From NCBI RefSeq assembly GCF_013177435.1, contig NZ_CP053627.1, forward strand, positions 1,050,001-1,082,000: 32,000 nucleotides of DNA, read 5' to 3'. This document shows, one piece after another, positions 316 to 17,578 of this stretch. How positions within the stretch are numbered: position 1 is the first letter of the stretch; each line of letters starts with the position of its first letter. The notes under the pieces are model-generated. The model was not told the DNA's origin. It did no database searches and saw nothing but the letters and a program-made list of their open reading frames with translations. Origin of the DNA: Xylella taiwanensis. GTDB lineage: Bacteria > Pseudomonadota > Gammaproteobacteria > Xanthomonadales > Xanthomonadaceae. Made by a program: the position numbers and the translations under genes.

Positions 316-3300
316 TCAGACAATCGAACTGGCGACCAGTAAGTGATGCTCGTTAGTGTCGCGCACCGTCGCCTGTGTCGTGGTCACCGCGGACGGCATC
401 GCCATCGCCGCAATCAAACGCTCCACCTCACCGGACAGCACCGTCCCATCCTGGAATACGAAAGATTCCACCTGATGCGCCGGCGTACTGAACCAGCCTG
501 CCACGGTCACCTGATCGTCCCCATGATTGAAAAGGATGGAGAGATCGTCTCCTGACTTCGTAAAGAGCGCCTCTTCACGATGCAGCCCCTCACCAAACAC
601 CAGCCTGTCGGTACCGCCCTGTTCCACGAGGGTGTCGTGGCCGTCTCCTTTCTCGAACAAATACGTGTCCGAATTATTACTGCCGTACAGCGTGTCATCG
701 CCGGTACCACCGCTCAGCACGTTGTCAGAGGAGTAATACGCCGACACTTTGAGCACGTCGTTACCGGCACCGCCTTCCAGACGGTTGCTGCCGCTGCCGC
801 CGTCCAGCAGGTCGTTGCCATCCCCGCCTAGCAGCACATCATCGCCGCCGCGGCCGGACAGCGTGTCATCGCCAGCGCCGCCCAGCATGGTGTCCCGGCC
901 TTCCCAGCCGTTTAGGGTGTCGTTGCCGGAGGTGCCCTGTGTGGTTAACGCCATGTCATTCAACGTCTTTCCGGTCCAGACGGTGCCATCGGCAAAGGTG
1001 ATCTGTTCGATGTCGGTGCGCGCGTCACGCCCTCCATCGGAGTTCACTCTGTTCTTGAATCGGATGCTGTCGTGGCCGTTGCCCAAATCCAGCACTACAT
1101 CCTGACCTTGCAACCATCCTCGGATGTCGCTGGCGGCAATGCCTGTGCCCAACACCAGGGTGTCGGTACCGCCTTGATCCACGAGGGTGTCGTGGCCGTC
1201 TCCCTGGTTGAACAGGTAGGTATCGGCGTTGTCACTGCCGTACAACGTGTCATCGCCGGTACCACCGTTCAGCACGTTGTCAGAGGAGTAATACGCCGAC
1301 ACCTTGAGCACGTCGTTACCGGCACCGCCTTCCAGACGGTTGGTGCCAGCGCCGCCGGACAGCACGTCATCGCCAGCGCCGCCCAGCAGGATGTCCCGGC
1401 CTTGCCAGCCCTGCAGGGTGTCGTCGCCAGAGGTGCCGACGGTCGTCAGGCCGATGTCGCTTAACGTCTCCCCAGTCCAGACCGTGCCATCAGCAAACAC
1501 GATCTGCTCAATGTGGGCAGTGCTGCTACGGTAGCCATCGGAGGTCAACCAGTCCTTCAAGCGGATGCTGTCGTGGCCGTTGCCCAGGTCCAGCACCACG
1601 TCTTGACCTTCGCGCAGCACCTTGACATCACTGGCCACAATCCCGGCGCCCAACACGAGTTTGTCGGTACCGCCCTGTTCCACGAGGGTGTCGTGGCCGT
1701 CTCCTTGGTTGAATAGGTAGGTATCCGCAAAGATGCTGCCGTACAGCGTGTCATCGCCGGTACCACCGCTCAGCACGTTGTCAGAGGAGTAATACGCCGA
1801 CACTTTGAGCACATCGTTACCGGCGCCGCCCTCCAGACGGTTGCTGCCGCTGCCGCCGTCCAGCAGGTCGTTGCCATCCCCGCCCAGCAGCACATCATCG
1901 CCGCCGCGGCCGGACAGCGTGTCATCGCCAGCGCCGCCCAGCATGGTGTCCCGGCCTTCCCAGCCGTTTAGGGTGTCGTTGCCGGAGGTGCCCTGTGTGG
2001 TTAACGCCATGTCATTCAACGTCTTTCCGGTCCAGACGGTGCCATCGGCAAAGGTGATCTGTTCGATGTCGGTGCGTGTGTCACGCCCTCCATCGGAGTT
2101 CACTCTGTTCTTGAATCGGATGCTGTCGTGGCCGTTGCCTAGGTCCAGCACCACATCCTGACCTTGCAGCCATCCTCGGATGTCGCTGGCAGCAATACCT
2201 GTGCCCAACACCAGGGTGTCGGTACCGCCTTGATCCACGAGGGTGTCGTGGCCGTCTCCCTGGTTGAACAGGTAGGTATCGGCGTTGTCACTGCCGTACA
2301 GCGTGTCATCGCCGGTACCACCGTTCAGCACGTTGTCAGAGGAGTAATACGCCGACACCTTGAGCACGTCGTTACCGGCACCGCCTTCCAGACGGTTGGT
2401 GCCAGCGCCGCCGGACAGCACGTCATCGCCAGCGCCGCCCAGCAGGATATCCCGGCCTTGCCAGCCCTGCAGGGTGTCGTCGCCAGAGGTCCCGATGGTC
2501 GTCAGGCCGATGTCGCTTAACGTCTCCCCAGTCCAGACCGTGCCATCAGCAAACACGATCTGCTCAATGTTGGCAGTGCTGCTACGGTAGCCGTCGGAGG
2601 TCAACCAGTCCTTCAAGCGGATGCTGTCGTGGCCGTTGCCCAGGTCCAGCACCACGTCTTGACCTTCGCGCAGCACCTTGACATCACTGGCCACAATCCC
2701 GGCGCCCAACACGAGTTTGTCGGTACCGCCCTGTTCCACGAGGGTGTCGTGGCCGTCTCCTTTCTCGAACAAATACGTGTCCGAATTATTACTGCCGTAC
2801 AGCGTGTCATCGCCGGTGCCGCCGCTCAGCACGTTGTCAGAGGAGTAATACGCCGACACCTTGAGCACGTCGTTACCGGCACCGCCTTCCAGACGGTTGC
2901 TGCCAGCGCCGCCGGACAGCACGTCATCGCCAGCGCCGCCCAGCAGGATGTCCCGGCCTTGCCAGCCCTGCAGGGTGTCGTCGCCAGAGGTCCCGATGGT
3001 CGTCAGGCCGATGTCGCTTAACGTCTCCCCAGTCCAGACCGTGCCATCAGCAAACACGATCTGCTCAATGTGGGCAGTGCTGCTACGGTAGCCATCGGAG
3101 GTCAACCAGTCCTTCAAGCGGATGCTGTCGTGGCCGTTGCCCAGGTCCAGCACCACGTCTTGACCTTCGCGCAGCACCTTGACATCACTGGCCACAATCC
3201 CGGCGCCCAACACGAGTTTGTCGGTACCGCCCTGTTCCACAATGGTGTCGTGGCCGTCTCCTTGGTTGAATAGGTAGGTATCCGCAAAGATGCTGCCGTA

Positions 3301-15398: not shown

Positions 15399-17578
15399 GA
15401 TGTGCCTTGTTGGAGCCGGAATAGATGGGCGTAATGACCGTCGTGGCGGCCTAACAGTATCTCGTGCGATCCACTTTCCACGATTTTCCCTTTATCGATG
15501 ACGACGATACGGTCAGCGTGGCGTACCGTCGATAGGCGATGCGCGATGATCAGGACAGTGCGGCCCTTACAGATGGCACGCATATTTTGCATCACCGCAT
15601 GTTCTGATTCGTAATCAAGTGCGCTGGTGGCTTCATCGAAAATCAGAATGCGCGGATCGCCAATCAGGGCGCGGGCAATGGCAATGCGCTGGCGCTGCCC
15701 GCCGGAAAGCCCGGTGCCGTGTTCGCCAATCTTGGTGTCGTATCCTTCTGGCAGTTCAGCAATGAATGCATGGGCACCGGCCAGTGTTGCGGCGTGGATC
15801 ACGCGTTCCAGCGGGATGCCCGGGTCGGCCATGGCGATGTTTTCACGCACGCTGCGGTTGAACAGAAAGTTCTCCTGCAGTACGACGCCAATTTGGCGAC
15901 GCAGCCAGGCCGGGTCAGCCAATGCAAGGTCGTGGCCGTCGACCAAAACGCGCCCGCGCTCCGGGACGTACATCCGTTGTACTAGTTTGGTCAGGGTACT
16001 TTTTCCAGAGCCGGAACGCCCCACGATGCCGAGTACTTCGCCAGGCGGTATGTCCAGGTCGATCCCGGCGAGCACTTCGGGCGTATCCGGGCGATAACGG
16101 AACATGAGGCGTTCGAAGGTGATCCGCCCCTGGATGGGCGGCAATGTCATGCGGCTGCCGGGAAGTTCGGTACGTGTATTGAGAATCTCGCCTAGTCGCT
16201 CGACCGAAAGTCCTACTTGTTGAAAATCCTGCCATAGCTGGGCTAGCCGGATGATTGGAGCAGTCACCTGCCCGGACAACATGTTGAAGGCAATGAGCTG
16301 TCCAAGGGACAGTTTCCCTTCAATCACTAGTTTGGCGCCCCAGAACAACACGGCGACGTTGGTGAGTTTCTGTACCAATTGAACGCTTTGTTGGCCAAAC
16401 GTCGCAATTTTGGTGACGCCAAAGCTGGCTCCGACGTAGCCGGCGAGTTGGTTGTCCCAGGTGCGTGTGACACGTGGGTCTACCGCCATCGCTTTGACGG
16501 TACCAATACCGCTGACTGTCTCGACTAAAAATGCTTGGTTGTCTGCGCCGCGTGCAAATTTTTCATCCAGACGTTTCCGGAGTACTGGGGTGACGAACGC
16601 TGAGATGAGTGCATAGATTGGCAACGACAACACTACAATCAGTGTCAGCCAGCCGCTGTACCAAAACATCACGGACAAAAAGACCACGGTGAACAGTAAG
16701 TCCAATACCGAGGTCAGTGCTTGGCCGGTGAGGAAATGGCGGATATTTTCTAGCTCGCGTACCCGTGCGATGGTGTCGCCAACCCGACGCGATTCAAAAT
16801 ACGCTAAGGGCAATGCCAAAAGATGGCGAAACAAGCGTGCCCCTAGTTCAACGTCAATTTTGCTGGTGGTATGTGAGAAGACATAAGTCCGCAGCCCCGT
16901 CAGCAACACTTCGAATAAGGCGAGCGAGATCAGGCCAACGACGATCACTTCAAGTGTGGTCAGTGCTTGATGTACCAGCACTTTGTCCATGACGACTTGG
17001 TAGAACAGCGGTGTCATCAGTGCGAATAGTTGGATGAATAGCGACACTGCAAACACTTCAGTGAGCAGTTTGCGGTACTTGACGACGGCTGGAATGAACC
17101 AGCTGAAGTCAAATTTAGCCAGATTTCCCAGGACCGAGGCGCGGGAGGCCACTTGGAGCAGGCGGCCTGCGTAGCGCGCTGCAAATTCATCCAGTGAGAT
17201 TGTCCGTGGCCGCTGATCTGTCAAGTCGTGGATCAGTATCTGGTTGCCAGTGACTTTGGCAACGATAAATGCATGTCCTTCAGGGAGCAGTGCCAGTGCA
17301 GGCAATGCCGCCATCGCGATACGGTGTGCCGGCTGAGTGACGACTTTGGCCTTTAGTCCGAGCTTCTTGGCAGCCAGCAGTAAGGACGTTTCATCGAATG
17401 GTTCGCCACTGCGCCCGAAATCGTGCGCTATCTGGATGGGATCAGCCGCAATGCCATGAAACTGGGCCAGCAGCACTAAGCCGTGGAGCGCGCTGTCAAG
17501 CCGTGTATTCGAACCTGCTTGATTCTCTGGTGTCGCAAGGGAACCCTTGTTTGTCATGTTGCCATCCTTAATGTGCAA
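15395..17578 (-). CDS. hlyB: HlyB-type T1SS ABC exporter with an N-terminal C39-like domain, 727 aa
   Basis: Walker [10 protein letters not shown], signature [15 protein letters not shown], Walker [13 protein letters not shown]. The six-helix TMD includes the HlyB-like [24 protein letters not shown]. The N-terminal domain [29 protein letters not shown]... aligns with the HlyB C39-like domain and has no Cys at the peptidase nucleophile position. The likely start is the ATG at 17557 (AAGGA upstream). Confidence 0.95.

Follow-up and report, generated by a model that had tools for sequence, protein, structure and literature searches.

The window analysed here, a 32,000-nucleotide stretch of the Xylella taiwanensis genome, contains a gene cluster that combines a type I secretion system (T1SS) with a repeats-in-toxin (RTX) protein and an amplified lipoprotein gene. 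All genes of the system, like every other feature of the window located below, are on the minus strand; the order is hlyB, hlyD, five lipoprotein genes (L1 to L5) interleaved with four open reading frames (ORFs) that repeat the start of the RTX gene (F1 to F4), and the RTX gene itself. The product of hlyB (15395 to 17578) is the ABC transporter of the type I system, scoring 1069.6 bits on TIGR01846 and also matching ABC_membrane, ABC_tran and Peptidase_C39, and hlyD (13977 to 15398), which overlaps the hlyB stop by 4 nt, encodes the membrane-fusion (periplasmic adaptor) protein (TIGR01843, 409 bits; HlyD_3). The Peptidase_C39 match begins past the catalytic-cysteine position and the N-terminus lacks a cysteine there, so the domain is C39-like and not that of a true C39 peptidase. 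HlyB itself carries the same C39-like domain. An earlier note on this DNA had recognised both genes, including the C39-like domain, on the strand of the lipoprotein and RTX genes, and the Peptidase_C39, ABC_membrane, HlyD_3, HemolysinCabind and HCBP_related families were all matched in the expected proteins. A family scan of the operon ORFs found no HlyC or TolC among them, again in line with that note. Since no scanned ORF had an acyltransferase match, including a 179-aa ORF described below, the locus does not have the make-up of an HlyA-type acylated cytolysin.

This locus is the X. taiwanensis orthologue of the 'RTX3 operon' with 'modular repeats' of X. fastidiosa (Gambetta, Matthews & Syvanen, BMC Genomics 2018, PMC5935956). 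L5 is 100% identical to 'Lipoprotein' FUT69_09290 of X. taiwanensis, all 15 lipoprotein homologues found are from Xylella, and the same aminotransferase, polysaccharide deacetylase and glutaredoxin/rhodanese genes flank the locus in both species. In each of the published modules an 'ORFan' accompanies a repeat of the N-terminal part of the RTX gene; the modules stand in tandem, have 41-44% G+C and a copy number that varies by strain, and were read as a new kind of mobile element (PMC5935956). The two loci share hlyB, hlyD, tandem modules and a full RTX gene, together with low G+C, an abrupt loss of homology and a variable copy number, and the X. fastidiosa loci in our sample (L001-L004, L088 and L090) have the module layout of X. 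taiwanensis. They differ in that X. taiwanensis has 5 units, an RTX protein of 2595 aa compared with 1061-1382 aa, and about 84 codons of RTX homology per fragment compared with about 57. The ORFan was not recognised as a lipoprotein in the 2018 paper, which proposed a mobile element and not immunity, and the DPL(V/A)LDLD boundary was not connected to clip-and-link processing (PMC5935956). It follows from that publication of an amplified module upstream of a Xylella RTX gene that the five diversified copies are not the novelty for which the earlier note took them.

The RTX ORF occupies 316 to 8103 (2595 aa) and contains 21 HemolysinCabind and 10 HCBP_related stretches. Its start is probably at 8088, six codons into the listed ORF (giving 2590 aa), because the stop of L5 overlaps a start there as ATGA and a Shine-Dalgarno sequence, AAGGAG, stands before it; the translational coupling of lipoprotein to RTX gene suggested earlier is thus borne out. 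Residues 374-547 (6463 to 6984) form a self-processing module (SPM) of the FrpC type, also correctly predicted, with a phmmer match to the FrpC SPM (PDB 6SJW/6SJX) at E = 8.6e-50. Within it, Asp374-Pro375 (encoded at 6979-6984) is aligned to the scissile bond of FrpC. The RTX/HCBP_related body is made of nine or more tandem repeats of 501/555 nt (167/185 aa) at 572 to 5279, and owing to these the protein is about twice the size of its X. fastidiosa orthologues. The body repeats are 76-99% identical to each other; their copy number is probably unstable and difficult to assemble. The protein collection has no entry identical to the full 2595 aa.

The N-terminus of the RTX protein holds a conserved all-alpha domain (about residues 6-210, 7474 to 8088) that we predict to be a toxic payload. 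An exhaustive HMMER search with residues 1-373 gave 79 cluster representatives, nearly all matching through their own N-terminus over about residues 10-205, and many of these carry RTX repeats and an Asp-Pro SPM motif at position 213-308. A word-indexed homologue search with the same residues retrieved 3 proteins, all from Xylella and not including FrpC, and one with the N-domain profile returned mostly short metagenomic fragments. Residues 1-400 had no Pfam or NCBIfam match, and the N-domain profile found nothing meaningful among PDB sequences. The AlphaFold2 model is all-alpha, and is confident only over about residues 11-110 (block means 82-98).

The earlier note counted five lipoprotein genes, and five exist, but they are not free-standing; it missed that they sit in a tandem array together with truncated RTX 5' ends. 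The array consists of 5.0 units of exactly 895 bp (about 7846 to 12320), each made up of one lipoprotein gene and the first ~84 codons of the RTX gene. In the repeat search the start-to-start spacing of the five copies is 895, 895, 895 and 895 bp, and the extent of the array was taken from where identity at a lag of 895 bp rises and falls: it climbs at about 7850, inside the RTX gene, and drops at about 11420. The passage from ~0.2 to above 0.8 takes place across roughly 7840-7870, which is an abrupt loss of homology at the module junction. Tandem Repeats Finder, with a longest period of 500, did not pick up the array. Its G+C content is 42.5-44% (8001-13000) compared with about 51-63% around it. 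When the units are aligned, each lipoprotein gene ends in an ATGA overlap with the start of the following RTX or fragment ORF, with AAGGAG before it, and fragment stops overlap the next lipoprotein start, likewise as ATGA, at every such junction. L1-F1-L2-F2-L3-F3-L4-F4-L5-RTX is therefore one translationally coupled chain of ORFs.

Array copy number among Xylella is 2, 4, 5 or 6. The X. fastidiosa loci run hlyB, hlyD, a repeated pair of lipoprotein and 90-aa fragment, and the SPM-RTX gene, with four lipoprotein genes in L001-L003, two in L004 and L090, and six in L088. Past the junction, the fragment tails of X. taiwanensis and X. fastidiosa are homologous (APCVRGAVYQVVREAEKK... and APSIRAAMDQADHKVNK...), which places the duplication before the split of the two species. 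A more recent event is visible in units 2 and 3, which are nearly 100% identical over about 330 bp (9611-9940 and 10506-10835) spanning the fragment ORF and the 3' end of the lipoprotein gene. The lipoprotein cores of the same two units differ strongly, with a synonymous divergence (dS) of about 0.9, and the juxtaposition clearly marks a recent patch of gene conversion in an old array.

L2 (10770 to 11393, read from MSAAS...), L3 (9875 to 10498), L4 (8980 to 9603) and L5 (8085 to 8708; FUT69_09290, the RTX-proximal copy) each encode 207 aa. The start of L1 (11662 to 12288; FUT69_09250) is uncertain, because the conserved start position reads ATC while an in-frame ATG lies at 12396. All 13 aligned family members (13/13) have a hydrophobic signal peptide followed by an invariant S-C-G lipobox, and their mature part has two invariant cysteines and an invariant C-terminal HTIPCQG; the conserved signal, lipobox and cysteines fit an extracytoplasmic protein. 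The family has no match in Pfam or NCBIfam. The five copies are under purifying selection, with pairwise ratios of nonsynonymous to synonymous divergence (dN/dS) of 0.24-0.43. Across the core (codons 67-170) dS is 0.4-1.05, and it is low in the flanks, which suggests that the flanks undergo gene conversion. The signal-peptide region is species-specific in its identities (at least 72% within X. taiwanensis, at most 36% between species), and in the core some copies are nearest to a copy of the other species, as L3 is to an X. fastidiosa protein at 70%. The first array copy of X. fastidiosa is a conserved positional type across strains (77-94% identity). The lipoprotein copies are, in short, old, intact and constrained.

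The AlphaFold2 model of L5 has an antiparallel sheet and a long C-terminal helix; its mean pLDDT is 76, and between residues 50 and 207 most block means lie at 80-96. Its weak Foldseek neighbours are DcrB, the best at E = 0.019, and then profilins. FrpD, the lipoprotein partner of FrpC, is a sheet crossed by a C-terminal helix, has one disulfide and weakly resembles profilin and a Mog1p-fold protein (PMC5233953), so that a kinship of fold with the Xylella lipoprotein is possible.

The four fragment ORFs, F1 (11390 to 11683; FUT69_09255), F2 (10495 to 10788), F3 (9600 to 9893) and F4 (8705 to 8998), each encode 97 aa, F1 having ATGA overlaps with lipoprotein genes at both ends. There is no match for a fragment ORF in Pfam or NCBIfam. 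Compared with the RTX 5' end, dN/dS is 0.2-0.4, and between F3 and F2 the first 80 codons show two nonsynonymous and zero synonymous changes. The fragments may serve mainly to maintain an uninterrupted chain of coupled reading.

We compared the N-domain with Smlt3024, which together with Smlt3025 forms an effector-immunity pair of the type IV secretion system (X-T4SS) of Stenotrophomonas maltophilia (Bayer-Santos et al., PLoS Pathog 2019, PMC6759196). Smlt3024 is a proven antibacterial effector, toxic only in the periplasm, and it is neutralised by Smlt3025, a lipoprotein encoded upstream that has an FrpD-like topology and a deposited crystal structure (PMC6759196). The same authors reported homology of Smlt3024 to the N-termini of 221 RTX proteins, and in 2019 proposed FrpC/FrpD as a T1SS toxin-immunity pair (PMC6759196). 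In hhalign comparisons the profile of the Xylella-type N-domain matched the Smlt3024 family (seven sequences rebuilt from S4 Fig of PMC6759196) with a probability of 94.5% and E = 7.6e-8 over 116 columns. The match kept its register when another, independent alignment of the N-domain was used (88.9%, E = 2.4e-6), and the SPM alignment, used as a negative control, scored 0.15%. Significance was reached only profile against profile, a single Smlt3024 sequence against the N-domain profile giving a non-significant 1.8%. These profiles indicate that the RTX N-domain is a remote homologue of Smlt3024. The gene order also agrees, the partner gene directly upstream encoding a lipoprotein in both systems. 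The pairs differ in their presumed delivery: the C-terminal part of the Xylella protein consists of RTX/HCBP_related repeats and its neighbours are T1SS genes, so export by the T1SS and self-cleavage would be expected here, not contact-dependent T4SS injection via an XVIPCD. The Xylella lipoprotein is also smaller than Smlt3025 (a mature domain of about 155 residues compared with about 250), has no detectable sequence similarity to it and is present in five tandem copies.

To place the locus among its relatives, an SPM-alignment scan was made with one genome per species. It confirmed at least 437 relatives, this being the number among the first 600 pattern matches, and 79 loci were taken from many proteobacterial and other lineages. 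Upstream DNA was sufficient for 74 SPM-RTX ORFs, of which 68 are adjoined by an upstream ORF of 80-500 aa on the same strand. In 63 of the 74 (85%) the adjacent upstream ORF has a hydrophobic segment or a lipobox, compared with 26% of control ORFs from the same loci; a few of these 63 are HlyD itself, and 24 have three or more predicted transmembrane segments. The N-termini themselves are diverse. In 67 pairs of N-terminus and upstream ORF (66 other loci plus Xylella) they form 41 BLAST clusters, and the Pfam matches among the 75 scanned were to Lipase_3 (3), DUF6973 (3), Mbeg1-like (2), Phospholip_A2_4 (2), Phage_lysozyme2 (1) and SLT (1). Upstream type co-varies with N-terminal type: 8 of the 13 locus pairs that share an upstream cluster also share an N-terminal cluster, where 0.25 would be expected. 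Truncated N-terminal copies beside extra small ORFs occur outside Xylella too (L005-L008 and L070). Across these loci, then, variable N-termini are found on a conserved scaffold with an adjacent cognate small protein, as in polymorphic toxins.

The reading to which we lean, as somewhat better than an even chance, is that the locus encodes an antibacterial toxin that is exported by the T1SS, clips itself and is accompanied by a tandem repertoire of immunity lipoproteins. The RTX protein would be exported, C-terminus first, by HlyB/HlyD with a TolC encoded elsewhere. Outside the cell, calcium would fold the RTX repeats and the SPM, which would then cut Asp374-Pro375 and free an N-terminal fragment of ~370 residues with a reactive aspartic anhydride at its C-terminus. 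The first ~200 residues of this fragment would be the toxic payload, acting in the envelope or periplasm of neighbouring bacteria. The producer and its kin would be protected by the lipoproteins, which, located either in their periplasm or on their outer membrane, would bind the fragment and neutralise it. The array itself could have arisen by unequal homologous recombination of an 895-bp unit in which, by chance, ~84 codons from the start of the toxin gene were included, its diverged copies being retained as protection against different toxin variants that circulate in Xylella.

The earlier note had left two roles for the lipoproteins, docking partners of the released fragment or immunity proteins, and we favour immunity with moderate confidence. 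The profile homology to Smlt3024 is the strongest single argument, because it would make the N-domain a relative of a periplasm-acting effector that has an upstream immunity lipoprotein. In addition, upstream envelope proteins are the rule across the SPM-RTX loci, their type co-varies with that of the N-terminus, and a few N-termini are of lipase or lysozyme type. Also in favour count the FrpC-like SPM beside a dedicated T1SS, the conserved lipoprotein signals, the purifying selection on all five diverged copies, the core types that are closer between species than inside the array, and the variable copy number. Several results weigh against immunity. The homology to Smlt3024 is remote and partial, covering about 120 of 308 residues with an alignment rebuilt from a supplement. 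Neither model helps: Foldseek against the PDB gave the N-domain no significant match and no neighbour that would suggest a mechanism, and gave the lipoprotein nothing at E <= 0.001, with neither FrpD nor Smlt3025 among the 50 matches listed. A profile of the 13 lipoproteins, searched against all PDB sequences at E <= 10, likewise failed to match FrpD (5EDF/5EDJ), as the earlier note had anticipated, or Smlt3025. Even where the N-domain belongs to the same family, in Snodgrassella (L030), Undibacterium (L041), L005 and L007, the upstream lipoproteins have no detectable homology to those of Xylella; nor have they any to FrpD/Smlt3025. Whole-gene dN/dS shows no sign of positive selection in the lipoproteins, and the fragments are not spare toxin cassettes, because RTX homology ends after ~84 codons. 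The reading also requires a fragment released by the T1SS to cross the outer membrane of its target, and the toxicity and binding attributed to the Xylella proteins are predicted ones. RTX N-domain identity and proximal-lipoprotein identity do co-vary positively across five Xylella arrays, but this is confounded by phylogeny and is not used as evidence.

An unlikely rival takes the lipoproteins for FrpD-like docks. They would capture the N-fragment at the cell surface, and its anhydride would cross-link the bacterium to plant, insect or sibling surfaces, making the system a calcium-triggered adhesin in which several lipoprotein variants serve different fragment alleles or surfaces. Neisseria meningitidis offers the model. 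Its FrpD/FrpC system shares with Xylella the SPM, an upstream lipoprotein gene in the operon (gene order frpD-frpC), an RTX protein that is a T1SS substrate and an N-terminal domain of unassigned function released by Asp-Pro cleavage, which in Xylella is predicted from the SPM sequence. FrpD binds FrpC 1-414 at about 0.2 nM (PMC5233953), and the pair has been interpreted as an adhesin (PMC5472700). The lipoprotein model, with its sheet, long C-terminal helix and two conserved cysteines, has the kinds of weak neighbour that FrpD has (Mog1p-like DcrB and profilins). On the other hand, the homologous Smlt3024 exerts its toxicity in the periplasm, with its lipoprotein as the neutralising partner; one upstream partner in three elsewhere is polytopic, of inner-membrane type, and cannot be a surface dock, and some SPM-RTX N-termini are lipases or lysozymes. 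Docking also leaves five diverged copies under purifying selection unexplained. Binding of fragment and lipoprotein cannot separate docking from immunity, because it is expected under both. The differences from FrpD/FrpC bear on classification as well: the Xylella lipoprotein has no detectable sequence homology to FrpD, which is absent from the 50 Foldseek matches listed, and frpD is a single copy without fragment ORFs whereas Xylella has five copies with fragments. To call the locus an expanded FrpD/FrpC-like system, as was done earlier, is justified by position and by the SPM and overstates its membership.

It is less probable still that only the RTX-proximal lipoprotein functions and that the other four copies, with the fragments, are neutral, decaying leftovers of duplication. 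In the fragments, residues that the N-domain conserves have indeed been lost (a W replaced by G in every X. fastidiosa fragment, INS by IHS in F2 and F3), and L1 has no ATG at the conserved start position. Yet all five lipoprotein ORFs are intact, with the dN/dS values given above at dS up to about 1, and each of the four unit junctions, like the start of the RTX gene, keeps the Shine-Dalgarno sequence and ATGA; the conserved ATG is missing from L1 alone, which is the first ORF. X. fastidiosa has the same ORF chain, with 4-nt overlaps at its lipoprotein-to-fragment junctions, and its first array copy is the conserved positional type noted above. The proposal of Gambetta, Matthews and Syvanen that the modules are a novel mobile element inserting upstream of RTX genes and building protein mosaics has in its favour the low G+C of the array, the strain-variable copy number and the abrupt end of RTX homology at the junction, besides its authors' own arguments (PMC5935956), but is very improbable here: no transposase, integrase or other recombinase lies in or beside the array, no notable terminal inverted repeats were found at the junction although the 2018 paper reported them, exact head-to-tail 895-bp units and changes in their number are explained by unequal homologous recombination, and a junction sequence common to both species indicates one ancestral duplication, not repeated insertion. 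That proposal in any case concerns origin and not function, and is compatible with immunity.

The immunity reading invites comparison with CdiA-CT/CdiI, Rhs and MafB. In these systems, as on this reading in Xylella, a conserved motif sets a variable toxic domain off from a conserved delivery part, the gene for a cognate small protein is adjacent, and low-GC DNA holds further genes of immunity type that alternate with truncated pieces of the toxin. The Xylella locus mirrors them, the predicted payload being N-terminal and the partner gene lying upstream, an orientation that follows from the C-terminal position of the T1SS signal. It differs further in that its pieces hold ~84 codons and not a complete alternative toxin domain, and in that its units are exact tandem repeats of one family. 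The wider SPM-RTX pattern looks like a mirror-image family of polymorphic toxins. We tentatively suggest, giving it rather less than an even chance, that SPM-RTX proteins, FrpC included, are widespread polymorphic antibacterial toxins delivered by T1SS. A variable N-terminal payload (lipases, phospholipases, muramidases, Smlt3024-like and glycine-zipper domains) would be released by calcium-triggered Asp-Pro cleavage, possibly with a covalent tether to the target, and the cognate immunity gene would lie upstream. In that case the Xylella array would serve as an inherited store of immunity that grows and shrinks by recombination at the shared RTX 5' segment.

Since the 1990s it has not been clear what biological role FrpC-type clip-and-link RTX proteins play, and the present locus joins two literatures, that on the Xylella 'modular repeats' and that on the Smlt3024/FrpD toxin-immunity hypothesis. 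Xylella, a quarantine pathogen of plants, inhabits mixed communities in the xylem and the insect foregut. Should the immunity reading be right, strain-specific arrays of 2-6 lipoproteins would be kin-discrimination markers among Xylella lineages, and SPM-RTX proteins would join the polymorphic toxins as a group delivered by T1SS.

Some further features of the locus lie outside this argument. The 179-aa ORF (12543 to 13082), in low-GC DNA between hlyD and the array, has no signal peptide, Pfam and NCBIfam yielded no match for it, and the protein collection contains no identical sequence; its membership in the system is uncertain. The corresponding gap between hlyD and the array in X. fastidiosa is only 628 bp with no gene called in it, so the ORF may be an insertion specific to X. 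taiwanensis. A promoter-like site (TTGACT-16-AATGAT, 12405-12432) lies just upstream of L1 and a terminator-like hairpin (13945-13959) right after the hlyD stop, both being consensus matches of kinds found less often than chance expects. The array and RTX gene may have their own transcript, separate from hlyBD. Downstream of the RTX gene, X. fastidiosa L001-L004 have a gene for a 1186-aa AAA_11/AAA_12/PLDc_2 helicase-nuclease (for example L001, 16404-19964) and one for an AAA_13 ATPase, and the region looks like a defence island; the window stops short of the part that would correspond to it.

Two observations concern SPM-RTX loci from other sources. In L007 (1030-7006) and L008 (1211-7187), which are metagenomic, a 1402-aa SPM-RTX protein with a glycine-zipper-like N-terminus is preceded by an 82-aa protein with two transmembrane segments, and further upstream by a truncated ORF with an SPM and by a protein of 140 aa that has four such segments. 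By analogy, this arrangement resembles pore-forming bacteriocins with membrane immunity proteins. Finally, 14 of 83 SPM-type ORFs have serine in place of aspartate before the conserved proline, for example ASPIVLDLDGDG; the loci listed for such modules are L014, L023, L031, L044, L045, L058, L070, L071, L079, L081, L084, L085 and L087. These Ser-Pro modules may not self-cleave, or may use a different chemistry.

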